Assembly: GCA_963720265.1 (NCBI GenBank) | Contig: CAVRET010000002.1 | Coordinates: 520,704 to 584,703, forward strand | Origin: an uncultured bacterium | GTDB taxonomy: Bacteria > Patescibacteriota > Saccharimonadia > UBA4664 | Length of the DNA stretch: 64,000 nucleotides | Reading direction: 5' to 3' | Shown: in pieces, positions 16,793 to 56,044 of the stretch | Layout: the number at the start of each line of letters is the position of its first letter | Numbering within the stretch: the first letter of the stretch is position 1 | The notes under the pieces: model-generated | What the model was told of the DNA's origin: nothing | Seen by the model: only the letters and a program-made list of their open reading frames with translations | Databases searched by the model: none | Translations under genes and position numbers: made by a program

Positions 16793-16794
16793 GA

Positions 16795-17478: not shown

Positions 17479-17512
17479 ACAGTGCGATAGCGTGCACGAT
17501 GGCACTCACACT
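17479..17512 (+). repeat. array repeat R9 (upstream half only, degenerate)
   Basis: CAGTGCGATAGCGTGCACGATGGCACTCACAC. It lacks the conserved box and hairpin. Confidence 0.5.
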
Positions 17513-18142: not shown

Positions 18143-18228
18143 ATGTACATTGTACGTACCTCACTCGATTCGTTCAATAGGGATAATGTCCGAAAGGCGC
18201 AACTTTAGGGTCGGGCTTTAGCCGGATC

Positions 18229-18312
18229 TCAGTGGCAATAGACTCCACGATGGTCCTCCATAACACTCATGCTTAAACTTCTCTACATCGAGGAGTTTTT
18301 TGTTGCTATGCT
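18229..18312 (+). repeat. array repeat R10
   Basis: CAGTGGCAATAGACTCCACGATGGTCCTCCATAACACTCATGCTTAAACTTCTCTACATCGAGGAGTTTTTTGTTGCTATGCTTTGACTATGG. Confidence 0.8.
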
Positions 18313-18897: not shown

Positions 18898-18990
18898 CAA
18901 GCCCAATTTGAGTTGCGACAGCGCCTACTGTGGCCCTCCGGCAATTATCTTCAAACTAATAGCTTCCTGAAGCCATTAGTTTATTATCCA
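18893..18990 (+). repeat. array repeat R11 (variant downstream half)
   Basis: CATTAGCAAGCCCAATTTGAGTTGCGACAGCGCCTACTGTGGCCCTCCGGCAATTATCTTCAAACTAATAGCTTCCTGAAGCCATTAGTTTATTATCC. Confidence 0.7.
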
Positions 18991-19149
18991 AGCACGCCAC
19001 CCTAGTAGACGTGCAACTATCCTCGCCATATGATTATCTACATGAGCAATCGGCCTGGATTAGTAAAGCAATTCAATGAAGCTTTTTCAAAAGGCGACCG
19101 ACATCTAGCAGAGGAACTGTTGGCCCCTAACTTCACGTTCTCGGCGCCG

Positions 19150-19750: not shown

Positions 19751-20052
19751 GACCGTGACGGGTTCTTTCAGAAATGCTGGCCTCAGGGACATAACCTTAA
19801 AAATATTGAGTATGTGCGCGTAACAGAAAATGCTGATGAAGTTATCATCACGCATGAATACGCTAAGCCAGACGGCGCCAAGGGGCGCAATACCGACGTA
19901 ATTACATTTGATGGAGATAAAATCATCCGTTTGGAAGTCTATTTTGGTTGGGACACAAAAGACTGGTAGTTGTTTTCAGAATTCCTGCCAAACAATCCTC
20001 GGAAATTTTCCCCTAAGATACGTCAGAGAACGTAAGACGCAAGGGGAACTAC

Positions 20053-24674: not shown

Positions 24675-25283
24675 ATGGCATTGATCAACTTCGGCTTCAA
24701 ATCGCCTGAACACCGCGACGGTCACGTGCCGCCGGGGCAGTCCGTAGTCACGAGCTGGCCAGTGCTCACGTATGGTCCGACGCCGATTATCAAAACTGCC
24801 CAGTGGCAGCTTGAAATCAATGGGGAAGTCAAGAAGCCGCTCAAGCTTAACTGGAAGCAGTTTAACGCCCTGCCCAAAACTACCATGGACACCGACATCC
24901 ACTGCGTCACCCGCTGGAGCAAACTCGGCATGCACTGGGAAGGCGTATCAATCGATGAGCTCATTAGACAAGCCGGTGGTCTCACAGGTAATGCCATGCA
25001 TCTCATAGCTTCCTGCTATGGCGGCTACACCACCAACTTACCAGTTGAAGACGTTACGCGCGGCCAAGCCCTCGTCGCCACCCAGGCCGGAGGGCAGCCC
25101 CTCACTCCCGAGCACGGCGGCCCGGCCCGCTTGTTTGTGCCACATCTTTATTTCTGGAAATCGGCCAAGTATGTGAATGAACTAACATTTACCGAGCGCG
25201 ACTATCCCGGCTTTTGGGAAGTCAACGGCTACAACAATTATGGAGACCCTTGGCGTGAGCAACGTTACGACACCGACTACTAA
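24675..25283 (+). CDS. molybdopterin-dependent oxidoreductase (sulfite-oxidase-fold, YedY/MsrP-like catalytic subunit)
   Basis: Oxidored_molyb-like block ...DIHCVTRWSKLGMHWEGVSIDELI..., ~200 aa. Confidence 0.6.
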   Translation: MALINFGFKSPEHRDGHVPPGQSVVTSWPVLTYGPTPIIKTAQWQLEINGEVKKPLKLNWKQFNALPKTTMDTDIHCVTRWSKLGMHWEGVSIDELIRQAGGLTGNAMHLIASCYGGYTTNLPVEDVTRGQALVATQAGGQPLTPEHGGPARLFVPHLYFWKSAKYVNELTFTERDYPGFWEVNGYNNYGDPWREQRYDTDY

Positions 25284-26025
25284 GAAACAGCCACTGCCTA
25301 CCGACTGGCGCGTGGGCACGGTTACGCACATCCGCTCAGAAGCGCCGGGTCTGCGCAGTTACTCATTTGCGTTCGACACCCCCGTCGAGCACGAGGCCGG
25401 CCAGCATTACGAAATCCGCCTCACCGCCGAGGACGGCTATCAGGCCGCCCGCCTCTATTCCGCTGCCATGCCGGCCAACGGCAGTGGCAACACGCTCCAG
25501 CTAACCATTGCGCTCATGCCCTACGGCGAGATCTCGCCCTATCTGTTTAATCATGTGCGCTCCGGCAGCCAGCTCGAGATTCGCGGTCCCTTGGGCAAAT
25601 ATTTCACCTGGTCTGAAACCGACCCGCATCCAATCCTGCTCATCGGTGGTGGCACCGGCGTGGTGCCACTGCGTGCCATCCGCATTGCCCATCAGCAGTG
25701 CTGCTCCGACGCGCCCATCAGGCTGCTCTACAGCGTGGGCACATACCAAGACATGGCCTACAAGTATGAACTCTTCCCTGAGCACGGCGTTCCTCCGGCC
25801 GATATCACCATGACCTTCACGAGCCGCGCGCCCGCAGGCTGGCAAGGCTATACCCGGCGTATCGACAAGCGAATGATCAAAGACCTGCTCGAATCCTACA
25901 AAACACCCCCGCACGCCTACGTCTGCGGCCCAACACCCATGGTCGAAGGGGTCGCCACCATGCTTGTTGCCGCCGGGCTTGATTTCGCTACCATTAAAAC
26001 TGAACGTTTCGGTCCAACAAATTAG
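25255..26025 (+). CDS. FAD/NAD(P)-binding oxidoreductase (ferredoxin-NADP reductase-like)
   Basis: FNR-type RxYS FAD motif (AARLYSAA) and GGGTGVVP NAD motif. Start is uncertain (25240 ATG or 25255 GTG). Confidence 0.65.
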   Translation: MSNVTTPTTKKQPLPTDWRVGTVTHIRSEAPGLRSYSFAFDTPVEHEAGQHYEIRLTAEDGYQAARLYSAAMPANGSGNTLQLTIALMPYGEISPYLFNHVRSGSQLEIRGPLGKYFTWSETDPHPILLIGGGTGVVPLRAIRIAHQQCCSDAPIRLLYSVGTYQDMAYKYELFPEHGVPPADITMTFTSRAPAGWQGYTRRIDKRMIKDLLESYKTPPHAYVCGPTPMVEGVATMLVAAGLDFATIKTERFGPTN

Positions 26026-26160: not shown

Positions 26161-27093
26161 TTACTGAATTTTGATCACAACCTTCCCGCGCACCGAGCCG
26201 CTCTCACGCGCCCGCATGGCCTCTTGAATCTGCTCCAGCGGGAACACTTGGCCCACCTGGGGTGTTACCTCGCCAGACTCTACCAGCTCGCGCAAAGCGT
26301 CAAGCGCCTCCGTTGTCACCTTGGTACCCTGCGTAATAGCGGTCACGCCCAGTTCTCGCGCCCGGGCCTCGTCCGCCCTTGCAAGCATCGACACAGCCTT
26401 GCCTCCGCGCTTCAAAATACCCAGTGCTTTATTAAACTCATCACCACCAACCGTATCAAACACCGCGTCATAATCGTGGAGTACTTCGGCGAAATCCTGA
26501 GTCTGGTAATCAATCACCTCATCCGCGCCCAGCCCTCGCACATAGCCGCGGTCGAGAGCCTTGGCTGTGGTCGCCACATGGCTGCCAATGTACTTTGCGA
26601 TCTGAATCGCGATACTACCAACGCCACCGGCGCCGCCGTGAATAAACAACTTCTGGCCGGCCGCCAGCCCCAAATGCTCATTCAATCCCTGTAACGCGCT
26701 CACCCCCACCAGCGGCAGTGCTGCTGCCTGTTCGGAATCAAGCCCTTCCGGTGCCCTGGCCACCTGGCCCACGGCGGTAGCGGCAAATCCCGCCCACGCG
26801 CCGCTGTTGCCTGCCACTACGTTGGCCTGGCCATACACCCGCTCGCCGGCCGCAAGACCCCGCACGCCGGAGCCGACCTCAGTCACCACCCCGGCAATAT
26901 CGCCGCCCAGTGTCACTGGCAGCGCAGGCATCATCGCCTTCACCGTGCCGTTACGCACTGCACTGTCAAACGGGTTAACACTCGAAGCATGCACCTCAAC
27001 CAGCACCTGCCCATCCAGTACCGCTGGTTTGTCCGCCTTGTTTATGTGCACCACCCCGGCATCGCCATACTCACTAATTTGTGCCGCCTTCAT
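26161..27093 (-). CDS. zinc-binding dehydrogenase / NADPH:quinone oxidoreductase (MDR family)
   Basis: GroES-like N-terminus and Rossmann motif GGAGGVGSIAIQIAK. Confidence 0.8.
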   Translation of the reverse strand: MKAAQISEYGDAGVVHINKADKPAVLDGQVLVEVHASSVNPFDSAVRNGTVKAMMPALPVTLGGDIAGVVTEVGSGVRGLAAGERVYGQANVVAGNSGAWAGFAATAVGQVARAPEGLDSEQAAALPLVGVSALQGLNEHLGLAAGQKLFIHGGAGGVGSIAIQIAKYIGSHVATTAKALDRGYVRGLGADEVIDYQTQDFAEVLHDYDAVFDTVGGDEFNKALGILKRGGKAVSMLARADEARARELGVTAITQGTKVTTEALDALRELVESGEVTPQVGQVFPLEQIQEAMRARESGSVRGKVVIKIQ

Positions 27094-35731: not shown

Positions 35732-35850
35732 ACCGCTCGCTTGTGCTACCATAAGAGGTAAGAACAAGACTAACCTCGGGTGGAAGTGGCGGTAAAGCGC
35801 TGGCAATTTGGTCTCATGTTTGTGTCTGTGGCCGCTTCGGGGTCGCAGTC

Positions 35851-36720
35851 ATGAAAGCTGTCCGCATTTGTGCCACTGGCCTCATCATCGTTGCCATTCT
35901 GGCAGTGGCCACTGCCTACCTCCGCCTACATGTGCCGGCCGTGCTGGCTCCCCGCGGCCCAATTGCACTGCAGGAGCGCAACCTCATGCTGTTTGCCTTC
36001 GCGCTCATGATGATTGTGGTCATCCCGGTCTATGTACTCACTATTACATTCGCCGTCCGATACCGAGCCGGTAACCATAAAGCCAAATACAGCCCGCACC
36101 TGGCCGGTTCGCGCGTGGTTGAAACAATCTGGTGGCTTATTCCGACCGCCCTTATAGTAGTGCTGGGAACGCTCGCCTGGACGTCAAGTCATGAGCTCGA
36201 TCCATACCGCCCAATCGCGTCCACTACCCCGACGATGACTATTCAGGTGGTGGCACTCGACTGGAAATGGCTCTTCATTTATCCGCAGCAAGGCATTGCT
36301 ACAGTCGGTTATGTGGAATTCCCGCAAAATACCCCGATCAACTTCGAAATCACTTCCGACGCTCCCATGAACTCGTTCTGGATTCCGCAACTGGCCGGCC
36401 AAATCTACGCCATGCCCGGCATGTCGACCGAGCTCCATCTTATGGCCTCCAAGTCTGGTTCCTATTACGGTGAATCGGCCAATATCTCTGGTGTCGGTTT
36501 CGCCGGCATGCATTTTGCTGCCAACGCCACCACCACCGCTGATTTCAATCAGTGGGTAATGCAGGCTCAGCATGCACCCCGGCGCCTGACCTCCATTACA
36601 TATGCGGCCTTGGCCAAACCAAGTCAAAACAACCCATCTGCAACCTATGCACTGGCCGACCCCAGCCTCTATAACACCATCATAATGAAATATATGATGC
36701 CGGGAGTAAGCCTGCCATAA
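35851..36720 (+). CDS. cyoA: cytochrome o ubiquinol oxidase subunit II
   Basis: Two N-terminal TM helices plus a cupredoxin-like domain. First gene of the cyoABCDE-like operon. Confidence 0.8.
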   Translation: MKAVRICATGLIIVAILAVATAYLRLHVPAVLAPRGPIALQERNLMLFAFALMMIVVIPVYVLTITFAVRYRAGNHKAKYSPHLAGSRVVETIWWLIPTALIVVLGTLAWTSSHELDPYRPIASTTPTMTIQVVALDWKWLFIYPQQGIATVGYVEFPQNTPINFEITSDAPMNSFWIPQLAGQIYAMPGMSTELHLMASKSGSYYGESANISGVGFAGMHFAANATTTADFNQWVMQAQHAPRRLTSITYAALAKPSQNNPSATYALADPSLYNTIIMKYMMPGVSLP

Positions 36721-38714
36721 TGGGATCTATGACTGCATTCTGGAGTGACGTGTTCGGCCGCCTGACGCTGCATTCGTTCCCCACCAGCCCCATTACCGCC
36801 GGCGCGGCTGTGGGTATGGTGCTGGCGGTAATCGCACTGGCTGCCTTTGCCACCTATAAACACGCCTGGGGCTGGCTGTGGCGCGATTGGTTCACCACCG
36901 TCGACCCCAAGCGCATTGGCACCATGTATCTCATTGTCGCGCTCATCATGCTGCTGCGCGGCATCTCTGATGTAATCATGATCCGCGCCCAGCAGGCCGT
37001 TTCGGTCGGCTCAAACCACGGCTTTCTCAGCTCAAGCACGTTCCAGCAAATCTTTTCCGCCCACGGCACCATCATGATTTTCTTCGTCGCCATGGGGCTC
37101 ATGTTTGGTTTCTTCAACCTCATCGTACCCTTGCAAATTGGCGCCCGCGATGTTGCCTTCCCGTTCTTAAATGCCACCAGCTTCTGGCTCTATGTGGCCG
37201 GTGCAATTCTCATCAATATGTCGCTCGTGGTAGGCGAATTCTCGGCGGCCGGCTGGCTAGCCTACCCGCCGTTGTCCGAGATTCAATACTCGCCCGGCAC
37301 CGGGGTCGATTATTGGATATGGAGCCTCCAAATCGCCGGCATCGGCAGTTTGCTATCAGGTGTCAATTTCCTCGTCACGATTCTGCGCCTGCGTGCCCCG
37401 GGCATGAACATGATGCGCCTGCCGATGTTTTGCTGGAGTGCGCTCGGTTCGCTCGCTCTCATCGTGTTTGCATTCCCCATTCTGACCGTTACGCTTACGC
37501 TGTTGGCCCTCGACCGCACGCTCGGCTTCCACTTCTTTACCGCCGGCGCCGGCGGTAACGCTATGATGTACGTCAATCTCATTTGGGCCTGGGGGCATCC
37601 GGAGGTATACATTCTCATTCTGCCCGCCTTCGGCATTTTCTCTGAAGTCGTGCCGGTATTTTCGCGCAAACCACTCTTTGGTTACACCTCCATGGTGTGG
37701 GCGATTTGGGCCATCGTGTTTCTGTCGTTCACCGTCTGGCTGCACCACTTCTTCACCATGGGCGCCGGTGCCGACATTAACGCTTTTTTCGGCATCATGA
37801 CCATGATTATCGCCATTCCCACCGGCGTTAAAATCTTCAATTGGCTCGCCACCATGTACCGTGGCCGCATTACCTTCGCCACGCCCATGTTGTGGTTCCT
37901 GGGTTTTGTGGCTACCTTCACCATGGGGGGTGTGGCCGGCGTTTTGATGGCGCTTCCCCCGGTTGATTTTCAGCTCCACAACTCGCTCTTCCTGGTTGCA
38001 CACTTCCATACCATGATCGTCGGCGGAGTCGTGTTTGGCTTCTTCGCCGGCCTGACCTACTGGATGCCCAAATTCCTGGGCTTCAAGTTTAACGAGCGCC
38101 TCGGCCGCTATGCCTTTTGGGGTTGGTTCATCGGCTTCCTCGGCGCCTTCATTCCGCTCTACATTCTTGGCATCATGGGCGCCACCCGCCGTCTCGACCA
38201 CTATGAACCGAGCCAGGGCTGGCAGCCACTTTTCATCGTGGCAGCGATTGGTGTGGCCATCGTCTGCCTTGGAATTGGCTTCCAGATATTACAACTCGGC
38301 TACAGCATTTGGAAACGTAAAGAAAATCAGGCCGGTGCTGACCCTTGGGATGCGCGCACGCTCGAATGGTCAACGCCCACGCCGGTACCGTTCTACAACT
38401 TCACCAGCATCCCGCACATTACCAGTCGTGACCAACTATGGGCTGATAAAGAGGCTGGGAAACGGCCCGCCGCACCCAGATACGAAGATATTGAACTGCC
38501 AAACAATACCCCCATGGGTCTATTTATCGGCCTGACGGCCTTGGTCACCGGCTTTGCCATTATTTGGCACATCTGGTGGTTGGCAATTCTTGGCCTGCTC
38601 ACCATCATTACGCTTATGGTTATTCGTCTCAGCGCTGATGACGAAGCCGTCGTGACCAACCTCACCGCCGCTGAAGTCAAGAAGCTGGCCGCCGGAACGG
38701 AGCAGGCGTCATGA
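36720..38714 (+). CDS. cyoB: cytochrome o ubiquinol oxidase subunit I (haem-copper oxidase)
   Basis: 664 aa with conserved HCO histidines (WAWGHPEVY, ...HHFFTMG..., HFHTMIVGG). Confidence 0.9.
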   Translation: MGSMTAFWSDVFGRLTLHSFPTSPITAGAAVGMVLAVIALAAFATYKHAWGWLWRDWFTTVDPKRIGTMYLIVALIMLLRGISDVIMIRAQQAVSVGSNHGFLSSSTFQQIFSAHGTIMIFFVAMGLMFGFFNLIVPLQIGARDVAFPFLNATSFWLYVAGAILINMSLVVGEFSAAGWLAYPPLSEIQYSPGTGVDYWIWSLQIAGIGSLLSGVNFLVTILRLRAPGMNMMRLPMFCWSALGSLALIVFAFPILTVTLTLLALDRTLGFHFFTAGAGGNAMMYVNLIWAWGHPEVYILILPAFGIFSEVVPVFSRKPLFGYTSMVWAIWAIVFLSFTVWLHHFFTMGAGADINAFFGIMTMIIAIPTGVKIFNWLATMYRGRITFATPMLWFLGFVATFTMGGVAGVLMALPPVDFQLHNSLFLVAHFHTMIVGGVVFGFFAGLTYWMPKFLGFKFNERLGRYAFWGWFIGFLGAFIPLYILGIMGATRRLDHYEPSQGWQPLFIVAAIGVAIVCLGIGFQILQLGYSIWKRKENQAGADPWDARTLEWSTPTPVPFYNFTSIPHITSRDQLWADKEAGKRPAAPRYEDIELPNNTPMGLFIGLTALVTGFAIIWHIWWLAILGLLTIITLMVIRLSADDEAVVTNLTAAEVKKLAAGTEQAS

Positions 38715-39310
38715 GCCGCCCAGCCGAAAGTGTCGCGGCCGAAACTTCGGTCACCACCAAAGTCACCTTCGGTTTTTGGGTTTATCTCATGACCGACTGC
38801 GTACTGTTTGCCAGCCTCTTTGCTACGTTCGCGGTACTGCGAAACAACACCTTCGGCGGCCCTCCCGGGAGCGTGCTGTTTAGCCTGCCCTATGTACTTA
38901 CTGAAACGCTTATCCTACTCACCTCAAGCTTCACGTGTGGTCTTGGCTTGCTGGCCGGCTACCGCCAGGCTAAAAACCAGGTAATCGCCTGGTTTGGCGT
39001 GACCTTTTTGCTTGGGCTGTCATTCCTTGTGCTCGAGATCTCTGAATTCACCCGCCTCATCAAAGACGGCAACGGCCCTCAGCGCTCCGGCTTCCTCTCA
39101 TCTTTCTTTACCCTGGTGGGCACGCACGGGCTGCACATTACTGCTGGGCTCATTTGGATGCTTGTGCTCATTACGCAAATTGCCGTTCGTGGCTTCTCGC
39201 CCGCCAGATTGCGCCGCCTGACATTGTTCAGTCTGTTTTGGCACTTTCTTGACATCATCTGGATCTTCATCTTTACCATCGTGTATCTTATGGGAACGAT
39301 ACCGCAATGA
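38711..39310 (+). CDS. cyoC: cytochrome o ubiquinol oxidase subunit III
   Basis: 5-TM subunit-III pattern. ATGA overlap with cyoB. Confidence 0.8.
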   Translation: MSRPAESVAAETSVTTKVTFGFWVYLMTDCVLFASLFATFAVLRNNTFGGPPGSVLFSLPYVLTETLILLTSSFTCGLGLLAGYRQAKNQVIAWFGVTFLLGLSFLVLEISEFTRLIKDGNGPQRSGFLSSFFTLVGTHGLHITAGLIWMLVLITQIAVRGFSPARLRRLTLFSLFWHFLDIIWIFIFTIVYLMGTIPQ

Positions 39311-39660
39311 ACCAGCCGACCTCTGAGCGCAGCACCCTGGGCGCCTATCTTACCGGTTTTGCCTTCTCAATTATTCTCACACTTACGGCCTACTTTATGG
39401 TGGTAGACGTTGCCTATCACGGCAATGCACTGCGGCTGATCATTTGCGCCCTCGCTCTGGGCCAATTTGTCACCCAAATGGTCTTTTTCCTGCATCTCGG
39501 CCGCGAACGCAAGCCCCGCTGGAAATTGCTGGTGTTTGGCGGGATGGTAACCGTGGTACTCATTCTCGTTGGCGGCTCGCTGTGGATTATGCAAAATCTC
39601 AATTACCGCATGACGCCGGCCCAGGTTGACCAATACATGAACAGCCAAGATGGGTTTTAG
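39307..39660 (+). CDS. cyoD: cytochrome o ubiquinol oxidase subunit IV
   Basis: Small 3-TM protein in the expected operon position. ATGA overlap with cyoC. Confidence 0.7.
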   Translation: MNQPTSERSTLGAYLTGFAFSIILTLTAYFMVVDVAYHGNALRLIICALALGQFVTQMVFFLHLGRERKPRWKLLVFGGMVTVVLILVGGSLWIMQNLNYRMTPAQVDQYMNSQDGF

Positions 39661-39666
39661 CCGGGG

Positions 39667-40524
39667 TTGGGGGAGCGGCTTACAGCATATTACTGGCTGA
39701 CAAAGCCGGGAATTGTCTACGGCAACCTGTTGCCGGCCGCAGCTGGGTTTTTTCTGGCTTCGCGCTGGGAGGTTAACTGGCTCAGGCTTGCCGCCATGCT
39801 GGTAGGCCTGGGCCTCGTCATTGCCTCGGCCTGTGTGTTCAATAACATGCTCGACCGTAACCTCGATGCCAAGATGGCCCGCACCCGCCGCAGAGCGCTT
39901 GTTACGGGCCGGATATCACTCACCGCGGCCCTCATCTATGCCGCAGCGCTCGGGCTCATCGGCACTACCTTGCTCGCTGCCTGCACTACCGGGCTCGCTC
40001 TCGCCTGTGCCCTGGCCGGCCTCGTGGGCTATGTAGTGGTCTACGGCGTGGCCAAGCGCCGCACCACTGCCGGCACCATTGTTGGCAGCCTACCAGGCGC
40101 CGTCCCACCGGTTGTGGGCTACACCGCAGTAACCGGTCATTTCGACCTCGCCGCCGCTCTGCTCTTCGCCACGCTTGCCGTCTGGCAAATGCCGCACTTT
40201 TACGCCATCGCGCTCTTCCGCGTTCACGACTACACGACAGCAAACCTACCCGTTTTACCCGTAAAGCACGGTGCCGCAGTCACCAAGCGCCACATTCTCG
40301 CCTATATTGTTGCATTCACCGTTATCTCACCGTTGTTAACGGTGTTTGGCTACACGGCCTGGCCTTATCTCGTGGCCATGATTGCGCTCGGCCTCGCTTG
40401 GCTAGTCCTTGGCATACGTCGTTTCCGCACCGAAAACAACGCGGCTTGGGGTCGCATAATGTTTCGCTTTTCATTGATCGTGTTGCTTGCGTTCAGCCTG
40501 CTTGTTAGCCTTACGCCAACCTAA
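39667..40524 (+). CDS. cyoE: protoheme IX farnesyltransferase (haem O synthase)
   Basis: UbiA-family polyprenyltransferase with NMLDRNLDAKMARTRRRAL motif. TTG start per the track. Confidence 0.8.
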   Translation: MGERLTAYYWLTKPGIVYGNLLPAAAGFFLASRWEVNWLRLAAMLVGLGLVIASACVFNNMLDRNLDAKMARTRRRALVTGRISLTAALIYAAALGLIGTTLLAACTTGLALACALAGLVGYVVVYGVAKRRTTAGTIVGSLPGAVPPVVGYTAVTGHFDLAAALLFATLAVWQMPHFYAIALFRVHDYTTANLPVLPVKHGAAVTKRHILAYIVAFTVISPLLTVFGYTAWPYLVAMIALGLAWLVLGIRRFRTENNAAWGRIMFRFSLIVLLAFSLLVSLTPT

Positions 40525-40532
40525 ACGGCTAG

Positions 40533-40814
40533 CTACTTGTAGTACCGCTTACGTGCCAGCCGGCGGTTGAGTCTCATCGCGATCGTGCCGCCGCCATATC
40601 GGTACATAACGACAAAATATACAATCGTTAACAGTGGCGGCGCTGTCGCAGCCGCGCCATAGATCGAAACGCCATTCGATATCGACTTGCCGAATAACAT
40701 TCCCGTTAGCACTGTGAGTACAAAAAAAACGAGTATGGCTTCAAAGATCGAGTCGAGAATCAATATAAACTGAAGGATCCAGGTCGGGAACAGTACATAT
40801 TGCTTTGCTTTCAT
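40533..40814 (-). CDS. small membrane protein, unknown function
   Basis: 2-3 TM helices, 93 aa. Confidence 0.35.
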   Translation of the reverse strand: MKAKQYVLFPTWILQFILILDSIFEAILVFFVLTVLTGMLFGKSISNGVSIYGAAATAPPLLTIVYFVVMYRYGGGTIAMRLNRRLARKRYYK

Positions 40815-40921
40815 AAAGGCCCTGCTTTGTGGATATTGTGGTGCGCGGGCGTCAATTATGTCAACTGCACGAAGACCAGGCTTGCGCCCAGATACCCAAT
40901 CCGCTTATGATTGTAACTGAT

Positions 40922-42166
40922 ATGGCCACACAACAATCTCAAACCAAGGTCGTAATCGTTGGCGGCGGCTTTGCCGGCGTGCGGGCGGCGCGCAAATTAG
41001 CGCCTCACCGCGAGCTTGCCGTCACGCTGATTTCGGCCGAGCCCACGTTTTCGTATTACCCACAGCTCTACCACTCGGCCACCGGCGGCTCACGTTCCGA
41101 ATCGGCCCTACCGCTCAACGAGTTGTTGGCCGGACTACCGGTGAGCCTAGTACACGACACTGTCGCCACCATCGATCCCGCCGCCCGCATCGTTGCTTCC
41201 GCCGGCACTAGCTATACCTACGACCAGCTCGTTCTCGCCCTGGGATCTGTCACTAACTATTTCGGTATCCAGGGTCTGCCCGAATTCAGCTACGACATCA
41301 AATCTCCGAGCGGCGCTGAGCGGTTCAAGCGCCATCTCCACAAACAGCTCGTTGACGACAAAAAGCCGGACCTCAACTACGTTGTCGTCGGCGGCGGTCC
41401 CACCGGTGTTGAGCTAGCGGCCGCGCTCGGCAGTTACCTCCGCTACGTCACCAAAAAGCATGGTATGAGCGCGCCCAAGTATTCGATTGATCTGGTGGAA
41501 GCCGCTCCGCGCCTATTGCCTCGTTCAAGTGAGGCCACCAGCGCCAAAGTTACCAGCCAACTCCAGCACCTAGGCGTGAATGTCATGACGGCTCAAACCG
41601 TCCAGGCTGAAACTGCCGACGCCCTCCAGCTGGCCGGCCAATCACTTGCTACCAAAACTGTCGTCTGGACCGCCGGTGTCGCCAACAATCCGTTCTTTAA
41701 AACCAACGCCGCCCACTTCACCCTGTCCAAAAACGGCCACGTCGAGGTTGACGAACATCTTCAAGCCGGGCCGAATGTTTATGTACTCGGCGACAATGCC
41801 GTGACCCAATATGCCGGCATGGCTCAAACCGCTATTGATAACGCCGATTTTGCCGCCGCCGACCTCCTGCGGGTAGTGCACAGCCAACCCAGGTCGGCCT
41901 ACAAGCCGGCCGCGCCTGCCAGCGTTATCCCGGTGGGTGAGCACTGGGCGGTAGCCGACTGGGGCGTACTGCACCTAAACGGTTTTGCCGGCTTTATGCT
42001 CCGCCGTGCCGCTGATCTTATTGGATATGCCGATGTCGAATCCTGGTCCAAAGCGCTGGGAGTTTGGCTGGCCGACGGCCGCCGCGAAGACGACTGCCCT
42101 ATTTGCCAGCCGGGCACGCCCCAGGCTACCACTCCGCCCGAAGTTCAACCCGAAACCGAAGCCTAA
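40922..42166 (+). CDS. ndh: type II NADH:quinone oxidoreductase (NDH-2)
   Basis: Two dinucleotide-binding motifs: VVIVGGGFAGVRAARKL and VVVGGGPTGVELAAAL. Start chosen at ATG 40922. Confidence 0.8.
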   Translation: MATQQSQTKVVIVGGGFAGVRAARKLAPHRELAVTLISAEPTFSYYPQLYHSATGGSRSESALPLNELLAGLPVSLVHDTVATIDPAARIVASAGTSYTYDQLVLALGSVTNYFGIQGLPEFSYDIKSPSGAERFKRHLHKQLVDDKKPDLNYVVVGGGPTGVELAAALGSYLRYVTKKHGMSAPKYSIDLVEAAPRLLPRSSEATSAKVTSQLQHLGVNVMTAQTVQAETADALQLAGQSLATKTVVWTAGVANNPFFKTNAAHFTLSKNGHVEVDEHLQAGPNVYVLGDNAVTQYAGMAQTAIDNADFAAADLLRVVHSQPRSAYKPAAPASVIPVGEHWAVADWGVLHLNGFAGFMLRRAADLIGYADVESWSKALGVWLADGRREDDCPICQPGTPQATTPPEVQPETEA

Positions 42167-42183: not shown

Positions 42184-42215
42184 GCGGACCCCACCGGTGG
42201 GTGGGGTCCGCTTGA
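42184..42215 (+). terminator. bidirectional rho-independent terminator between convergent genes
   Basis: GCGGACCCCACCGGTGGGTGGGGTCCGC perfect hairpin. Confidence 0.55.
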
Positions 42216-42230: not shown

Positions 42231-42608
42231 TCAGATTGGTGTGGGGAACAGCGACACGATCACGAACAGGGCCAGGAAGAGAACGGCCGCCACCACCACC
42301 GCCCGCCTCCTCCTCACGCCAAATCGACGGATGAAGAAGTAGATCGCGCCGAACGCGAATAGAGTTGCGATCGACAGGCCCACGTTGCCGACCACGACTT
42401 TGTGGCCCAGGCTGAGATGCCGATCCGCCCCCGAGTAGACAACCGTAGTAATGGTGGTAAGCGCGGCCAGCACCATCAGGCTCAGGGCCAACTGGCCGGC
42501 ATGGCGTGGCGCTGACGACCGCTGGGCAGGGGTCCGGCTTGACCCGGCAGGCGACACATCACTCAAGGTTCTGCTCCTTTGCCGAAACTTTGGGCCGAAT
42601 TGGCCCAA
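42231..42608 (-). CDS. membrane protein, unknown function
   Basis: Arg/Ser-rich N-terminus followed by 3 TM helices. Start is uncertain. Confidence 0.35.
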   Translation of the reverse strand: MGQFGPKFRQRSRTLSDVSPAGSSRTPAQRSSAPRHAGQLALSLMVLAALTTITTVVYSGADRHLSLGHKVVVGNVGLSIATLFAFGAIYFFIRRFGVRRRRAVVVAAVLFLALFVIVSLFPTPI

Positions 42609-45556: not shown

Positions 45557-45935
45557 TTATTGTTTGGCCAGCAGTGTCTTGACCCGCTCAGCTACCTGCT
45601 TCGGGGTCATCTCGGCTTTCACAATGTAATCATCAGCCGTCAGTTTATATACGCGCGTGGCCGTCTCGGTATCGCCCATGTTGGTCAGCACAACCACCTT
45701 AGCATCCCGGCCGCCCGGCTGCGCCCGCAGTTTCGACAGCATATCAAGCCCATTCATGTTGGGCATCATCAAATCCAGCAAAATAATGTCGGGCTTAAAG
45801 CTCTCAATGAGCTCAAGCCCTGATGTGCCGTCCGGCGCCGTGGCTACCTCGTAGCCTTCGGCCTCAAACTTGGTCCGGTACATCTGCACAATCGCCATAT
45901 CATCCTCGATAATGGCAACTCTGATCTTGGCGCTC
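45557..45935 (-). CDS. stand-alone response-regulator receiver (CheY-like)
   Basis: VAIIEDD...ILLDLMMPNMNGLDM...VVVLTN... receiver-domain motifs with conserved Asp. Confidence 0.8.
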
Positions 45936-45949
45936 ATGGCCAAAGTATA

Positions 45950-46618
45950 CTACCGCACCGGCACGTCGTATATACGATCCAGGATTTCCTGAGCCGTCAG
46001 GTGAGTGCCGTCAAACGGCTTGCCAATGCCAATCCGAAACCGCCTCCCCAGCCGCGTTTTCTGCCACTCAATGTGAGCTGGCACCACCATCGCCTGGTGC
46101 GAGTGCGCCAGCACCTCCACACCGCTCCGCGTGCGCGCCTGCCCGCGAATCGTCCGCCGGCCCTCGGGGAAAATAAATACTGTCCGCCCCATTTTAAGCT
46201 GCTTCAGGCCATATTCCAGACCACTCGGCCACTTAGGCGTTGTGCGTGCCGGGAAGCACCCCAGCGCCATAATAAGCGTGCGCAGCCCTGGCACCATCAG
46301 TCCGTTTGCTGCAAAATAGCGCAGTGTGCCCATATGCTGCCACACTCCAAACGGAAACTGTGAGCAAACAATGAATGTGTCCGCAATTGACTGGTGATTA
46401 GACGCAATAATGTAACGCGAACCATGCACTACATCGGTGGTCTCAATCTGAATCCGCCGAGACCGTCGCATGGGGACTGCCAGGACCTTACAGAGCCAAT
46501 ATGCCGCTCGCACGTTAAAATGGATAAGCCGCTCGCCCGCAGGAGTCTCGAGCAGCCAAACCCTACGCCTCTCCCGCGTCTTTTCAGGAACTCGTCCAAA
46601 ATGTTCTACTGTAAGCAC
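45950..46618 (-). CDS. plsC: 1-acyl-sn-glycerol-3-phosphate acyltransferase
   Basis: NHQSIADTF (HX4D) and FPEGRRT motifs. Confidence 0.8.
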   Translation of the reverse strand: MLTVEHFGRVPEKTRERRRVWLLETPAGERLIHFNVRAAYWLCKVLAVPMRRSRRIQIETTDVVHGSRYIIASNHQSIADTFIVCSQFPFGVWQHMGTLRYFAANGLMVPGLRTLIMALGCFPARTTPKWPSGLEYGLKQLKMGRTVFIFPEGRRTIRGQARTRSGVEVLAHSHQAMVVPAHIEWQKTRLGRRFRIGIGKPFDGTHLTAQEILDRIYDVPVR

Positions 46619-46681
46619 GTGTGTCAGCCGTTACAGAAAAATCTTGCATAAATGATACCATAATGATATAAAGAAGTCAAC

Positions 46682-47419
46682 ATGAATCTGACGATAAAAG
46701 AGCTCTCCAAAGCTGTATCCTACGCAGCGATGTTACAAAAGAACCGGGCTGACGTTCGCTCCGGCATTGTTACCGAAGCACAAGCCCTGAAAAAAGCCAA
46801 GCAACTTCATGCAAAGGTTTTTCTCTCACGCGGGTATATCACTGATGCAGATTTAACGACCGAAGGGACCATTGACACAAATGAAGACCCGTATCAGGAG
46901 CACTCGGAGTATTTTGTAGTTGAACGACTGATTGATAGTGAGTGGCGTATCCAGGCTGTCGCCCGACTCATTCATTTCCATCCTGAAAAACAAGACAGCT
47001 CGTTCCAGACGCTAGTGCACCAGGATGTGAACAAAGAAAGCCGTGAGTTAATTCAGCTTGTTGGGCTTGAAAATTGTTTTGAAGTTTCCGGGCTTGTTAA
47101 GGAAACAGGAGAGAGTACGTTAGCGGTCATGTTTCTATATCGAGAAATGTGGCAATATGCCCTCATGAATGGACAAAAATTATGGCTCATGTCATGTGAC
47201 GCTGGGCTGTACAAACGGCTAAGTTTTCTATTCGGAAATGCCTTTCAGCAAATCGGCAAAAAGTCCTTCTTTAAAGGGCACGATGTCATACCTGCGCTAC
47301 TCGACATCAGAGGCTCGATCAGCGTGTTCACTGGCAAAACCAAAAGCCGAAATCCTGCAACAAAGTTGCTGCAACACCGGCTTGCAAATTTTTTCCTTAG
47401 CGGCCTGCCAACAGAATAA
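46682..47419 (+). CDS. GNAT-fold N-acyltransferase resembling LuxI autoinducer synthases / N-acyl amino acid synthases (putative)
   Basis: Conserved-block order AKVFLSRGY...D.NED.Y...EYFVVER...IQAVARLI is similar to the LuxI/FeeM layout. By-eye call only. Confidence 0.3.
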   Translation: MNLTIKELSKAVSYAAMLQKNRADVRSGIVTEAQALKKAKQLHAKVFLSRGYITDADLTTEGTIDTNEDPYQEHSEYFVVERLIDSEWRIQAVARLIHFHPEKQDSSFQTLVHQDVNKESRELIQLVGLENCFEVSGLVKETGESTLAVMFLYREMWQYALMNGQKLWLMSCDAGLYKRLSFLFGNAFQQIGKKSFFKGHDVIPALLDIRGSISVFTGKTKSRNPATKLLQHRLANFFLSGLPTE

Positions 47420-47453
47420 GCCGACCGCTGATTAATCATGCTAGCATTAGCTT

Positions 47454-49628
47454 ATGTTAAGCATAAGGTTTATAGGGCTGACCCTTGTTGCGATCGTGTC
47501 AGTCATGATCGGCGCTATTACCCTTATAAGCAATAAAAAAGCCTACTCAAGCAGAGTGTTTGCCGCTCTCAGCAGTATTAGCGGCACCTATGTACTCGTT
47601 AATTACCTGGCTGATCACGATCAAGCTCGCGGACTATTTTGGGTACGAGGCACTTTTTTCCTAGCAACGTTTATGGTGCTTTTCTTGACACTGTTCCTAA
47701 ATCGGTTCCCGAGACGCAAGCTCCCAAGGCGCTGGGATGTCTGGCTGAGCTCAGTGGCGGTAATGATGGCCGTCTTATCGATATTGCCGGTATTTGTGCC
47801 TCGGGTAGTGCTTACGCCTGGAAGAACAAACGTTGTGCACGGTCCTCTGTATTCAGTTTTCCTTGTATTCCTTGCAGTTTACCTGGGAATAGCGATTTAC
47901 TGTGGCATTCGAGGTTTTCGAGAAGCTGAGCGTCTCGATCGTTTGCGGCTTAGATATGTGATCTTTGGCATATTCATAACGGCTTTTCTACTCATTCTGA
48001 CAAACGTTGTTCTGCCACTAATTCAGGGGCATGACACATATGCAGACCTGGGGTCATACTTTATCTTGATCTACGCCAGTTTCACCGCATACGCCATCAT
48101 CCGTCACCGCCTCTTCGATATCCGCACCGTCGTTGCTCGTTCGGTAGCCTACACCCTACTGCTCGCCACACTGGCCGCCTTCTACGTCGCCGCTGGGTTT
48201 GCCTTCACGAGCATATTTTCACCTAGCGACACGGCTTCAAAGACCCAACTCGTGCTCAATACCGCGCTCGCCCTCATTTTGGCATTTACCTTCCAGCCGC
48301 TGCGGCGGTTCTTTGAGCGGGTTACCGACCGCGTGTTTTATCGCGACCGCTACGACTCCCAAGTAGTCTTAAGCAGCTTCTCCAAAATCCTTGTCTCCGA
48401 ACTGGATCTCGACCGCATCTTAAAGCGCGCGCTGCAAGAATTATGCGAATCAGTGCACATCGAATTCGGCCAGCTTATCATCTTTAACCACGACCGTGTC
48501 TATCGTGTCGAGCACTACGGCCCGCTGCCCAAACGCCTCATGGTTGCCCCCGAGCTGGCGCGCCTGGGCCATGTCATGCTGGTGGCCGACGAGCTCGAGG
48601 GCGGCGAGCGTAAGACCCTGCTCGACCGCCACGGCATCCGGGTGGCGCTCAGCCTGCGCACCCGCGAAGAATTCGTCGGTTACCTCCTCTTGGGTGACAA
48701 ACTGTCCGGCGACATTTACTCCGGCCAGGACCTCAGGCTCCTCGAGATTATCGACAAAGAGCTCGCCGTGGCCATTCAAAACGCCAAGTCCTACGCCGAA
48801 ATCCGCGAATTTAACGTCACACTGCAAGCTCGCATTGAGCATGCCACCAACCGCCTGCGCGTCGCCAACCGTCACTTAAAGGAGCTCGACCGCGCCAAAG
48901 ACGAGTTCATTTCCATGGCCTCGCACCAGCTGCGAACCCCGCTCACTACCATCAAAGGCTACCTCTCAATGATGCTCGAAGGCGACGCCGGCCGCCTCAC
49001 CAAGCAGCAAAAGGAATTCGTGGATTACGCTTTTGGCGCCTCCGAACGTATGGTCAACCTGATTTCCGACCTGCTCAATGTTTCGCGCCTCAGCGCCGGA
49101 CGCTTCCTTATCCAAACCAAGCCCACCGATATGGTGGGGATGATCGACGAGGAAGTACACCAGCTTAAGCAGCACGCTGCCGCCAAGGGCCTCAAGCTTA
49201 TCTTCGAGCGTCCATCGCACCCTTTACCCCCGGCCCAAATCGACGACAACAAGACCCGCCAGGTCGTCATGAACTTCATCGACAACGCCATTTACTACAC
49301 CCAAACCGGCGAAGTGCGCGTTATCCTCACGCAGGACAGCGACCACGTGCGGCTCGAAGTGCACGACACCGGCATCGGTGTACCCGAAGCGGCTCGCAAA
49401 AAACTGTTCACCAAGTTTTTCCGTGCCGGCAACGCCCAGGACATCCGGCCCGACGGCACGGGCCTAGGCCTCTATCTTGCGAAACGCGTCATTCAAGACC
49501 AGGGTGGTACAATTATATTCAGTAGCGTGGAGGGTAAAGGATCGACCTTTGGGTTCGAACTACCCTTCAAGCCCCAACCTGTAATCCACAAGGACGAGCA
49601 TGACAGAGTCCACGCCCACACCCGGTAA
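47454..49628 (+). CDS. sensor histidine kinase with ~7-TM N-terminal domain, GAF-like region, HisKA and HATPase_c
   Basis: About seven hydrophobic helices in the first 270 aa. H-box MASHQLRTPLTTIKGY. N, G1 (DTGIGV), and G2 (GTGLGLYLAKR) boxes. Confidence 0.85.
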   Translation: MLSIRFIGLTLVAIVSVMIGAITLISNKKAYSSRVFAALSSISGTYVLVNYLADHDQARGLFWVRGTFFLATFMVLFLTLFLNRFPRRKLPRRWDVWLSSVAVMMAVLSILPVFVPRVVLTPGRTNVVHGPLYSVFLVFLAVYLGIAIYCGIRGFREAERLDRLRLRYVIFGIFITAFLLILTNVVLPLIQGHDTYADLGSYFILIYASFTAYAIIRHRLFDIRTVVARSVAYTLLLATLAAFYVAAGFAFTSIFSPSDTASKTQLVLNTALALILAFTFQPLRRFFERVTDRVFYRDRYDSQVVLSSFSKILVSELDLDRILKRALQELCESVHIEFGQLIIFNHDRVYRVEHYGPLPKRLMVAPELARLGHVMLVADELEGGERKTLLDRHGIRVALSLRTREEFVGYLLLGDKLSGDIYSGQDLRLLEIIDKELAVAIQNAKSYAEIREFNVTLQARIEHATNRLRVANRHLKELDRAKDEFISMASHQLRTPLTTIKGYLSMMLEGDAGRLTKQQKEFVDYAFGASERMVNLISDLLNVSRLSAGRFLIQTKPTDMVGMIDEEVHQLKQHAAAKGLKLIFERPSHPLPPAQIDDNKTRQVVMNFIDNAIYYTQTGEVRVILTQDSDHVRLEVHDTGIGVPEAARKKLFTKFFRAGNAQDIRPDGTGLGLYLAKRVIQDQGGTIIFSSVEGKGSTFGFELPFKPQPVIHKDEHDRVHAHTR

Positions 49629-50001
49629 AACCATCCTGATCGCCGAAGATGATCCGTTCATTTCGCGTATGTATCAAATCAAGCTGGAAGGCGCCGGCCT
49701 GCGCGTGATCGTGAAAAACAACGGTCGCGACGCTTATGAGGCCATCAAGGCTGAGCACCCGAACCTGGTCATGCTTGATATTAATATGCCCGAACTTTCC
49801 GGCCTCGAGGTACTGTCGGCTTTGCAAAGCGACGGCTACGACCTCGGTGCCATGCCCGTGATTGTACTCACCAATTCATCTGATATGGCCGACCGTAAAC
49901 GAGCCCAAGAGCTCGGCGCGGAATACGTGGTAAAGGCCGACCTTACGCCCCGCCAAGTGCTTGATATGATTAGCTCCAAACTCGGCGATGCTCCGGCTTG
50001 A
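49600..50001 (+). CDS. stand-alone response-regulator receiver (CheY-like)
   Basis: ILIAEDD...VMLDINMPELSGLEV...VIVLTN. Overlaps the kinase 3' end by 29 nt. Confidence 0.8.
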   Translation: MTESTPTPGKTILIAEDDPFISRMYQIKLEGAGLRVIVKNNGRDAYEAIKAEHPNLVMLDINMPELSGLEVLSALQSDGYDLGAMPVIVLTNSSDMADRKRAQELGAEYVVKADLTPRQVLDMISSKLGDAPA

Positions 50002-52169: not shown

Positions 52170-52592
52170 ATGCACAAGATAATTGCAGTTGCCGTTATCA
52201 TTTTGGCTTTTTGTGTGGCCGCGGCTGGTGGCCTATACATCTTTACGCACAAGGCCGCCGGGCCCGTCGCTACGCCCAGGCCAAGCATGAATATGCCGAC
52301 ACCATCGGGCCAAAGCAGCTCAAGTACGCCGGTTGCCACATCGAGCGTAAGTATTCAAAATTATGCCTTCAGCCCGGCCGCTGTTACGGTCAAGAAGGGC
52401 GCCACCGTAACCTGGACCAACAAAGACACGGTCGGCCACACAGTGACCGAATCCGACGGTCAGTCGGGCCCGTCCAGCAGCACGCTTAACCAAGGCCAAA
52501 GCTATAGCTATACCTTTGGCACCGCCGGCACATTTCATTACAAATGCACCATCCACCCCTACATGACCGGCACGGTCACTGTTACGGACTAG
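52170..52592 (+). CDS. cupredoxin (blue copper protein, plastocyanin/amicyanin-like), membrane-anchored
   Basis: N-terminal TM. Type-1 Cu ligands in ...GHTVTE... and YKCTIHPYMTGTV (Cys-x2-His-x2-Met). Confidence 0.7.
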   Translation: MHKIIAVAVIILAFCVAAAGGLYIFTHKAAGPVATPRPSMNMPTPSGQSSSSTPVATSSVSIQNYAFSPAAVTVKKGATVTWTNKDTVGHTVTESDGQSGPSSSTLNQGQSYSYTFGTAGTFHYKCTIHPYMTGTVTVTD

Positions 52593-54847: not shown

Positions 54848-56044
54848 ATGGGTCGTATGGCAAGACGGCGCTTATCCGAATATCGCGCCAAGCAGCTTCT
54901 CGCAAGCGCCCTGGGGCAGCTCTATGCCGGGCTCGAACTCGACGCCGAAACCGATTGGCGAGCAGTACTCGCGGACTTACGTAGCCCACAGCATTACGTG
55001 ATAAAGGTTGACCAGGCTGTAAAGGGCCGCTTCAAGCAAGGACTGGTCCTACTCAATGTACCGGCCGCACAGACGCCCGCGGCCGCCCAGACATTATTTG
55101 ACCGGGGGTTTCGATACCTGCTGGTGGAAACCTACACGCCTCACGACCGTGTAGCTGAGTGCTATCTGGCGATCAGGCGCGGACGCGGAGCCGACGCTGT
55201 ACTGTTCTCGGCCAGCGGCGGGGTCGATGTGAACGAACATGCCGATGCGGTTACCGGCGCCGAATTCTCACCAGCCTCGGCCGGCGACGCCGAATCTGCG
55301 CTTGGCCTGACCACGGGCACATTGGAGCGCTTGCATGAGCTGTTTAATGCTGTCCATATGACCCTTCTCGAACTCAACCCACTCCTGGTTGTGGAGCATG
55401 AGCTCGTAGCACTCGATGTGGCGGCCGAGGTTGATGCCGCGGCCGAGCACCTCGTGGCCGGCCGGTGGACCGCCGGTGATCTGCGCCGGGCTGCCTTGTT
55501 GCCCGAGGAGGCCGCGGTTGAACAGCTTGGCGCCCACAGTCCGGCTTCATTTAGCCTCAAGCCGCTCAATCCGGACGGTGCCGTCTTCGTACTTTTGTCC
55601 GGCGGCGGCGCCAGCCTTGTGGTGACCGATGAATTTTGCCACCAAGGTTTTGGCCCACAGTTGGCCAATTACGGCGAATATTCCGGCGACCCCAGCGAAT
55701 CCGAAGTAGCCGATTATGTAAGGCAGGTGCTCTCGTTGCTCAAAAAATCCCAAGCTAAGGCCAAAGTGCTTGTCATCGGCGGCGGCGTGGCCAACTTCAC
55801 GGACGTGCGCACCACGTTCAAAGGCATTATTCGGGCACTGAACGAAGCGCAACCATGGCTACGTGAACACGACGTAAAAGTGTACGTTAGGCGCGGCGGC
55901 CCGCACGCGGCCGAAGGCCTCGCGCTCATGCGCGAGTTTCTGGATCAGGCGGGACTACTTGGCCTTGTGGCCGGCCCGGAACTCGGCTTGCCCGAGCTCG
56001 TTACGGCCGCTACCGCACGCCTTGGAACCAAGGCCGCAGCATGA
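54848..56044 (+). CDS. aclB: ATP-citrate lyase beta-like subunit (ATP-grasp, succinyl-CoA-synthetase-beta fold)
   Basis: 398 aa. Blocks NYGEYSGDPS, VIGGGVANFTDVRTTFKGII, and VYVRRGGPHAAEGLALM parallel bacterial AclB. Confidence 0.7.
   Translation: MGRMARRRLSEYRAKQLLASALGQLYAGLELDAETDWRAVLADLRSPQHYVIKVDQAVKGRFKQGLVLLNVPAAQTPAAAQTLFDRGFRYLLVETYTPHDRVAECYLAIRRGRGADAVLFSASGGVDVNEHADAVTGAEFSPASAGDAESALGLTTGTLERLHELFNAVHMTLLELNPLLVVEHELVALDVAAEVDAAAEHLVAGRWTAGDLRRAALLPEEAAVEQLGAHSPASFSLKPLNPDGAVFVLLSGGGASLVVTDEFCHQGFGPQLANYGEYSGDPSESEVADYVRQVLSLLKKSQAKAKVLVIGGGVANFTDVRTTFKGIIRALNEAQPWLREHDVKVYVRRGGPHAAEGLALMREFLDQAGLLGLVAGPELGLPELVTAATARLGTKAAA

Follow-up and report, generated by a model that had tools for sequence, protein, structure and literature searches.

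Gene content and layout of the cyo-ndh locus

We analysed a 64,000-nt stretch of DNA (hereafter the window: positions 520,704 to 584,703 of the forward strand of contig CAVRET010000002.1, assembly GCA_963720265.1) from an uncultured bacterium of the Saccharimonadia, within the candidate phyla radiation (CPR), whose genome measures roughly 1.1 Mb (an identical CyoB sits on a contig of 1,108,292 bp). Positions 35851-42166 hold six intact genes on the plus strand: cyoABCDE, which lie contiguously and encode subunits II, I, III and IV of a bo3-type quinol oxidase and a haem O synthase, and then ndh, which encodes an NADH:quinone oxidoreductase of type II (NDH-2; Table 1). CPR bacteria have long been held to be strictly fermentative, and cyo and ndh constitute the main genomic evidence for O2 use by environmental Saccharibacteria. 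We consider it reasonably probable that these genes specify a short chain for aerobic electron transport, and the locus adds one more well-preserved example to the published cases.

A preliminary description of the window, made from its sequence, had reported this gene series together with ATGA overlaps at the junctions of subunits I and III and of subunits III and IV. Both overlaps are present in the junction sequences (GTCATGAGC at cyoB/cyoC and GCAATGAAC at cyoC/cyoD); cyoA and cyoB overlap by 1 nt in a TAATG, and a gap of 6 nt separates the cyoD stop codon from the start of cyoE. The order cyoA-B-C-D-E, with a haem O synthase gene, is as expected of a bo3-type operon. The same description had placed NDH-2 0.4 kb downstream, which agrees with the 397 nt that follow cyoE if ndh starts at ATG 40922. 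The public annotation of ndh starts instead at GTG 40829, giving a protein of 445 amino acids and a gap of 304 nt; it extends into the insert region described below and is probably 31 codons too long. Homologues measure 396-416 amino acids, and nucleotide similarity to a soil relative, locus L081, sets in 20 nt ahead of ATG 40922; this ATG is therefore almost certainly the start.

Table 1. Features of the cyo-ndh locus (window coordinates)
Feature	Position	Strand	Remarks
Leader upstream of cyoA	35732-35850	+	two blocks conserved with L081 (pairwise alignment)
cyoA	35851-36720	+	289 aa; quinol oxidase subunit II; two N-terminal transmembrane helices, CuA-less cupredoxin domain, COX_ARM tail
cyoB	36720-38714	+	664 aa; subunit I; haem b, haem o3-CuB, D and K channels, TM0
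cyoC	38711-39310	+	199 aa; subunit III; ATGA overlap with cyoB
cyoD	39307-39660	+	117 aa; subunit IV; ATGA overlap with cyoC; three hydrophobic segments
cyoE	39667-40524	+	285 aa; haem O synthase (protohaem IX farnesyltransferase); start codon TTG
Lower-GC insert, about 0.3 kb	40515-40901		between cyoE and ndh; blastn against L081
93-aa open reading frame within insert	40533-40814	-	2-3 transmembrane segments; hypothetical small membrane protein
ndh, type-II NADH:quinone oxidoreductase	40922-42166	+	414 aa from ATG 40922
12-bp GC-rich hairpin	42184-42211		between convergent ndh (+) and 125-aa membrane reading frame (-); terminator scan
125-aa membrane open reading frame	42231-42608	-	converges on ndh across hairpin

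Family assignment and catalytic sites of the oxidase

Pfam profiles match the five cyo products as COX2/COX2_TM/COX_ARM (CyoA), COX1 (CyoB, 3e-150), COX3 (CyoC), COX4_pro (CyoD) and UbiA (CyoE, 1e-55), and for each subunit the NCBIfam models of cytochrome o ubiquinol oxidase outrank those of aa3 quinol oxidase (Qox) and cytochrome c oxidase. CyoA (281 bits against TIGR01433, cut-off 266) and CyoC (261.7 bits against TIGR02842, cut-off 223.75) exceed the thresholds of their models; CyoB (1005.5 bits against TIGR02843, cut-off 1020.35) and CyoD (81.1 bits against TIGR02847, cut-off 81.45) fall just below, by less than 1.5%. CyoE reaches 333 bits with NF003348, a model of haem O synthase (cut-off 285), and 266 bits with TIGR01473 (cut-off 210), and the Asp-rich motifs of the UbiA family are visible in its sequence as NNMLDRNLD and HDYTTAN. 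By Pfam match and by the ranking of the NCBIfam models, the family assignments of the cyo genes are unambiguous.

The preliminary description had proposed a quinol oxidase and had named as the alternative a cytochrome c oxidase with a full CuA site and a cytochrome c partner encoded nearby. In an equal-length phmmer match between residues 155-235 of CyoA and 142-222 of bovine COX2 (1occ_B), the columns of the CuA ligands, which we take to be H161, C196, E198, C200, H204 and M207 in bovine numbering, read N, S, N, S, F and M. Five of the six are thus replaced; both CuA cysteines are serines, the sole cysteine of CyoA being C7 in the N-terminal hydrophobic segment, and CyoA of Escherichia coli shows the identical S/S/F/M pattern in alignment. 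Since its CuA ligands are replaced, CyoA is subunit II of a quinol oxidase and not of a cytochrome c oxidase. A six-frame scan of the window for CxxCH found no plausible cytochrome c candidate near the operon: the matches lie in non-coding frames or in zinc-ribbon/HNH-like contexts only, the nearest more than 21 kb away. An aa3-type cytochrome c oxidase was rejected on these two grounds and on CoxB and CtaD scores far under those of the Cyo models. We also rejected a menaquinol oxidase of the aa3-600 (Qox) type, for which QoxA-QoxD scores are well under the Cyo scores and below their own cut-offs. CyoB does not have the Glu that the Bacillus subtilis enzyme carries at the Q101 position, and a haem A synthase (COX15/CtaA) is missing from the open reading frames (ORFs) scanned in the window.

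For subunit I we aligned the window protein with E. coli CyoB, 119 close homologues and CyoB from 80 loci; the named matches among the 119 homologues are almost all Saccharimonadia, one being labelled Candidatus Binatia. The possibility had been raised at the outset that CyoB is a pseudogene product lacking key histidines. All six metal-ligand histidines are kept, namely H106 and H421 for haem b, H419 for haem o3, and H284, H333 and H334 for CuB, and together with the cross-linked tyrosine, Y288, they are conserved in every one of the 119 homologues. The same holds for D135 and E286 of the D channel and for K362 and T359 of the K channel. The quinol-headgroup residues R71, D75 and Q101 lie in an ungapped stretch of the alignment, are kept in the window protein and are invariant. 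TM0 is also present, as residues 11-60 align with residues 1-50 of the E. coli protein and include a hydrophobic segment at 20-49.

Approximate dN/dS ratios against L081, estimated with dS near saturation (about 1-1.9), are 0.17 for cyoA, 0.06 for cyoB, 0.07 for cyoC, 0.07 for cyoD, 0.18 for cyoE and 0.115 for ndh, similar to the 0.11 of a neighbouring APH gene. All six genes are plainly under purifying selection and are not pseudogenes.

The NADH dehydrogenase and its genomic setting

The ndh product matches Pfam Pyr_redox_2 (1.9e-43), and some sources name its homologues 'NADH dehydrogenase' or 'NADH:quinone reductase (non-electrogenic)'. Among solved structures its best sequence match is YjlD of B. 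subtilis (1.7e-37), followed by NDH-2 of Caldalkalibacillus thermarum, of S. aureus and of mycobacteria; FSP1, Ndi1 and sulfide:quinone reductase score much lower. An AlphaFold2 model, computed with 47 homologues, has a mean predicted local distance difference test score (pLDDT) of 88.4 and a predicted template-modelling score (pTM) of 0.87. When the PDB was searched with Foldseek, each of the 14 best matches was a bacterial NDH-2, with template-modelling scores of 0.82-0.88 and the C-terminal helices included; root-mean-square deviations are 2.1-2.7 Å over about 397 columns, and 4.5 Å over 435-438 columns for two mycobacterial entries. Other identities considered for ndh, namely sulfide:quinone reductase, FSP1/AIF and CoA-disulfide reductase, were rejected because all rank under every NDH-2 entry in both sequence and fold. 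The two GxGxxG motifs of the dinucleotide-binding domains for FAD and NADH (G14/G16/G19 and G157/G159/G162) and E193, the acidic residue expected to confer a preference for NADH, are invariant in 47 sequences; the motifs align with those of YjlD and the C. thermarum enzyme, and a GD motif is likewise invariant.

The dehydrogenase also carries a C-terminal CxxC at C392/C395 (DNA about 42095-42106), within the pattern (E/Q)D-x-C-x-x-C, or more fully (E/Q)D-x-C-P-I-C. The motif is found in all 117 full-length Saccharimonadia homologues, in 80 of which its cysteines are the only ones, and alignments with solved NDH-2 stop before the tail that bears it. As an invariant mark of the clade this CxxC appears to be new; as to its role, we can only guess at a redox switch or at a metal site between subunits.

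The preliminary description had NDH-2 following the oxidase operon, and the position stands, but the gap between cyoE and ndh is not empty: it holds a minus-strand ORF of 93 amino acids within an insert of lower GC content. By blastn, window positions 40514-40902 (388 bp) replace 67 bp in L081, and their GC content is 48% against ~60% in the flanking genes. The insert is seen in the window genome only, is absent from the closest relatives and, with its ORF, appears to be new. The 93-amino-acid product matches no Pfam or NCBIfam family, and tblastn found no counterpart in the 80 loci. A promoter-like (sigma-70-like) match lies in front of its ORF, on the minus strand at 40864-40835. In L081-L083 ndh begins 74 bp after cyoE on the same strand and is followed by genes for a CHASE3 histidine kinase and a response regulator, and in the comparison of the window with L081 (42115-42659 against 15046-16944) this pair is replaced by the 125-amino-acid ORF and the hairpin that separates it from ndh. 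Another 7TM histidine kinase with two receiver proteins is encoded at 45557-50001. The hairpin, which lies between convergent genes, is likely to be a bidirectional terminator. Elsewhere ndh lies directly downstream of cyoE in two loci and 1-4 kb off in five, and none was found in the examined flanks of seven others; the linkage of ndh with cyo across Saccharibacteria is recurrent, not universal.

Two blocks of the cyoA leader are kept between the window and L081 (TGTGCTACCATAA.AGG and GAAGCGCTGGCA..TTGG), and they stand out because the cyo genes themselves are only about 76% identical to those of L081 at the DNA level. They may be promoter or operator elements. No match to the sigma-70 consensus was found in the leader at 35732-35850, and no FNR/CRP-type palindrome was found upstream of cyoA.

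The best matches of CyoB, of NDH-2 and of MurB, a housekeeping gene product encoded at the opposite end of the window, are all from Saccharimonadia, and several contigs recur across the match lists. The closest relatives of CyoB, at 91% identity, are three soil or other metagenome contigs whose flanks are syntenic to those of the window. Upstream lie genes for two GT4 glycosyltransferases, an alpha/beta hydrolase, GDPD, Nudix and APH; downstream, for FolD and HAD. Among contigs chosen as one genome per species, metagenome-assembled genomes (MAGs) of Saccharibacteria/Saccharimonadia encode CyoB with 61-72% identity, and Chlamydiae-type, gammaproteobacterial and a few parcubacterial proteins come next at about 58-61%. 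In a rough neighbour-joining tree, calculated without support values, the window CyoB is nested in a Saccharibacteria clade that adjoins a Chlamydiae-type clade; copies from Kaiserbacteria and the C7867-007 Parcubacteria stand apart, and one Paceibacterota copy falls inside the Saccharibacteria clade. A phylogeny of CyoB had been suggested as a way to a donor lineage, and this topology agrees with the lateral acquisition of cyo from Proteobacteria- or Chlamydiae-like donors inferred by Nicolas et al. (PMC8407418). In GC content (0.555-0.60) cyo and ndh do not differ from the genome around them, so the module is not a recent import; a recent horizontal island was rejected on this ground and on the synteny of the flanks with a relative.

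Contrary to the preliminary description, which saw little else respiratory in the window, several further redox proteins are encoded there. A membrane-anchored blue-copper protein of 140 amino acids, of the amicyanin/plastocyanin family, is encoded about 10 kb downstream of cyo (52170-52592, plus strand), with type-1 copper ligands visible as H..C-x2-H-x2-M. The oxidase, being without CuA, is not an evident redox partner for it, and a blue-copper protein is drawn in the chain of 'Candidatus Teamsevenus rhizospherense' too (PMC6031116). At 24675-25283 (plus strand) lies an MsrP/YedY-like molybdopterin oxidoreductase domain of 202 amino acids, which reaches 62.6 bits with the MsrP model, far short of the cut-off, and is overlapped by a gene for an FNR-like FAD/NAD(P) reductase (25240-26025, plus strand) that is conserved in L081; a molybdoenzyme is odd for a reduced genome. 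A putative NAD(P)H:quinone oxidoreductase of the zinc-dependent alcohol dehydrogenase superfamily (26161-27093, minus strand; PIG3/Qor type, 169 bits, cut-off 297) adds to the quinone-related enzymes of a genome that is probably unable to synthesise quinone.

Other features of the window lie outside electron transport. A two-subunit ATP-citrate lyase-like pair, unexpected for CPR bacteria, is encoded at 54848-56044 and 56041-57855 (plus strand), one subunit combining ATP-grasp and citrate-binding domains and the other a CoA-ligase with a C-terminal citrate synthase/citryl-CoA lyase domain; aclAB is, however, reported to be enriched in MAGs of Saccharimonadia (PMC12577380). Another unusual enzyme, among CPR carbohydrate-active enzymes, is the 842-amino-acid secreted-type GH59 glycoside hydrolase with a ricin-B lectin tail (6566-9094, plus strand; galactocerebrosidase family, 3e-100). 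From about 9500 to 20000 the GC content drops to 0.47-0.50, against 0.56-0.61; this stretch starts directly after two tRNA genes, tRNA-Arg(tcg) (9539) and tRNA-Lys(ctt) (10068), is filled with short ORFs, including those for a PRK-like kinase, a ROK family protein, DUF998 and OmdA, and may be an integrated island.

A proposed short aerobic chain, competing explanations and known counterparts

At the entry of the proposed chain NDH-2, a monotopic flavoprotein, would oxidise cytoplasmic NADH via FAD and reduce a membrane quinone. CyoABCD, as a four-subunit A-family haem-copper oxidase of the bo3 type, would then oxidise the quinol at subunit I's TM0/TM1/TM3 site and pass the electrons from low-spin haem b to the haem o3-CuB centre, where O2 would be reduced to water as protons are pumped via the intact D and K channels. 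CyoE would farnesylate imported protohaem to give haem O for the oxidase. The two enzymes would share a quinone pool, and the genomes of published relatives suggest that quinone and haem are scavenged, probably from a host cell; the ends served would be the regeneration of NAD+, the removal of O2 and a degree of proton-motive force to drive an F-type ATPase whose genes would lie in another part of the genome. Electron transfer from NADH through quinone to O2 had been put forward in the preliminary description, and it is supported by the absence of CuA and of a nearby cytochrome c, by the kept ligands of CyoB and by the sequence and predicted fold of NDH-2. Quinol:O2 oxidoreductase activity with proton pumping, a content of haem b and haem o, and NADH:quinone activity are predicted here from sequence features.

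Several observations weigh against such a chain. Within an ungapped stretch of the CyoB alignment, His98 of the E. coli quinol site is replaced by Thr (window T107) and Glu14 by Ser (window S23). Substitutions of His98 in E. coli cripple quinol oxidase activity. The position is His in all 57 non-CPR loci and in the solved bo3 enzymes of E. coli and A. baumannii as well as in B. subtilis aa3-600; solved structures show a hydrogen bond between His98 and the headgroup of ubiquinone, and a proton relay from His98 to Glu14 has been proposed (PMC13022660). On the side of the dehydrogenase, the quinone motif AQxAxQ is half kept, as AQTAID: A301, T303 and A304 are found in 47 of 47 sequences and Q302 in 42 of them, and the last Gln is Asp in the window, in a column that varies within the clade (Y, H, N, R). 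No NDH-2 equivalog is among the 25 NCBIfam matches listed for this protein; the best there, TIGR03169 (Nterm_to_SelD), was rejected at 116 bits against a cut-off of 310. Genes for quinone (men/ubi) biosynthesis, haem biosynthesis and ATP synthase are absent from the ~55 ORFs scanned in the 64-kb window. Finally, co-transcription of ndh with cyo is unlikely because the oppositely oriented ORF in the insert separates them, and the arrangement suggests that ndh is probably transcribed on its own in the window genome. The source of the quinone, which the preliminary description singled out as a further question, has also been raised in published work on Saccharibacteria (PMC6031116, PMC8407418, PMC11659515, PMC12577380); quinone and haem pathways are incomplete or absent in related genomes, for which scavenging was proposed (PMC6031116; PMC8407418).

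It is possible, if rather unlikely, that the same enzymes act mainly to scavenge O2 and regenerate NAD+, protecting a fermentative episymbiont with negligible conservation of energy. An earlier study, as represented by Starr et al. (PMC6031116), explained an NADH dehydrogenase and ubiquinol oxidase, in the first genome of Saccharibacteria known to carry them, as oxygen scavenging. The window abounds in proteins for oxidative stress and repair, among them thioredoxin reductase-like, MsrP-like and Qor-like proteins as well as Nudix, HhH-GPD glycosylase and glyoxalase proteins, and shows no ATP synthase gene. A pure scavenger, however, would not obviously need the pumping residues D135, E286, K362 and T359, which are strict in all 119 homologues, and F-type ATPase, along with aclAB and ndh2, is reported to be enriched in Saccharimonadia (PMC12577380). 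Oxygen scavenging and the energy-conserving chain proposed above are compatible and differ in emphasis only.

The altered quinol site could also be read as an adaptation. On this hypothesis, which we think quite improbable, the H98T and E14S replacements remodel the site for a donor other than ubiquinol, such as menaquinol or another quinol drawn from the membrane of the host, with another route of proton release, and the CxxC of NDH-2 perhaps belongs to the same adaptation or is a redox switch. Among the 119 Saccharibacteria-type homologues, position 98 is His in 61, Thr in 29, Gln in 14, Met in 10 and Leu in 4, compared with the uniform His of the non-CPR loci; an acidic residue at position 14 is rarer in sequences without His98, so that the two losses tend to go together, and the CxxC is universal among the full-length NDH-2 homologues. 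The hosts of cultured Saccharibacteria are Actinobacteria, which make menaquinone. Genes for quinone biosynthesis are not reported in soil CPR genomes that carry cyo (PMC8407418). However, the menaquinol oxidase of B. subtilis keeps His98 and has Glu at the Gln101 position, and the Thr/Gln of the window therefore matches no known menaquinol signature. R71, D75 and Q101 are, moreover, invariant, and the variety of replacement residues at position 98 resembles relaxed constraint more than directed adaptation. In a broader form of the idea, to which we give a small chance, the replaced His98/Glu14 relay in about half of the saccharibacterial bo3-type oxidases, taken with the CxxC of NDH-2, could mark a chain rebuilt for borrowed cofactors, both haem and a host quinone (possibly menaquinone from actinobacterial hosts), with a non-canonical quinol site and a thiol switch or metal site on the dehydrogenase.

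That the module is a decaying, non-functional relic of lateral transfer, in a cell unable to make quinone or haem, is very improbable and strongly disfavoured: the CyoB phylogeny, in our tree and in PMC8407418, does suggest acquisition from other bacteria, His98 is lost and an insertion parts ndh from cyoE, but none of the six ORFs is disrupted, dN/dS lies between 0.06 and 0.18 (at the saturated dS noted above), every metal ligand is conserved, the operon is kept across a deep Saccharibacteria clade and its GC content is host-like.

For the short aerobic chain that we favour, there is ample precedent. A linear chain from Ndh to a bo3 oxidase, fed by scavenged quinone and haem, was proposed for T. 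rhizospherense (Starr et al. 2018, PMC6031116); the same authors remarked on discrepancies among subunit I's 'functional residues'. In Saccharibacteria, Parcubacteria and Doudnabacteria from soil, Nicolas et al. (2021, PMC8407418) described cyoABCDE, next to which an oxidoreductase ORF often lies, and cyo occurs in more than 50% of environmental Saccharibacteria (PMC11659515). The preliminary description had called such modules unusual; for Saccharibacteria they are common and published (PMC6031116, PMC8407418, PMC11659515, PMC12577380), and the pairing of cyo with NDH-2 is real but ordinary for environmental members of the group and has already been described. The replacements of His98 by Thr and Glu14 by Ser go slightly beyond the accessible literature and appear to be new; with the CxxC of NDH-2 they offer concrete mutational and biochemical targets.

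With T. rhizospherense and the soil and groundwater Saccharibacteria, the window genome shares its phylum, the cyoABCDE order and a single-subunit NADH dehydrogenase. Further features in common with T. rhizospherense and other Saccharibacteria are a haem O synthase as the only gene of the haem pathway and, elsewhere in the genome, a blue-copper protein and NAD(P)H:quinone reductases; an 'associated oxidoreductase' beside cyo is shared with several CPR loci. The window CyoB is at most 72% identical to those of species representatives, compared with 91% to soil-metagenome contigs, and the locus differs from that of its closest relative in the insert that splits ndh from cyoE and in the missing kinase/regulator pair after ndh.

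The E. coli bo3 oxidase has the same gene order, and its subunit I matches the window CyoB at 6e-247 over residues 11-656, sharing the haem and CuB ligands, Tyr288, the D and K channels, TM0, R71, D75 and Q101. E. coli CyoA (1fft_B) matches at 8.8e-77 over 261 residues, with the CuA-less columns and COX_ARM tail in common. In contrast, the window CyoB is about 57-59% identical to enterobacterial copies and has Thr and Ser at positions 98 and 14; the window CyoA has His27 where E. coli CyoA carries its lipoprotein Cys25; and the host of the window is presumably unable to make ubiquinone or haem.

The dehydrogenase shares its fold with the NDH-2 enzymes of bacteria (YjlD/Ndh, 9PXK; C. thermarum, 4NWZ; S. 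aureus, 5NA1; and a mycobacterial enzyme, 9MQY). It also has their Rossmann GxGxxG motifs, as VVIVGGGFAG and VVVGGGPTG, a conserved Glu (in LVEAAP) that follows the NADH domain's second beta-strand, the GD motif and the AQ.A element. It differs from them in its low identity (24-28%), in the replaced second Gln of AQxAxQ and in the extra tail that bears the CxxC.

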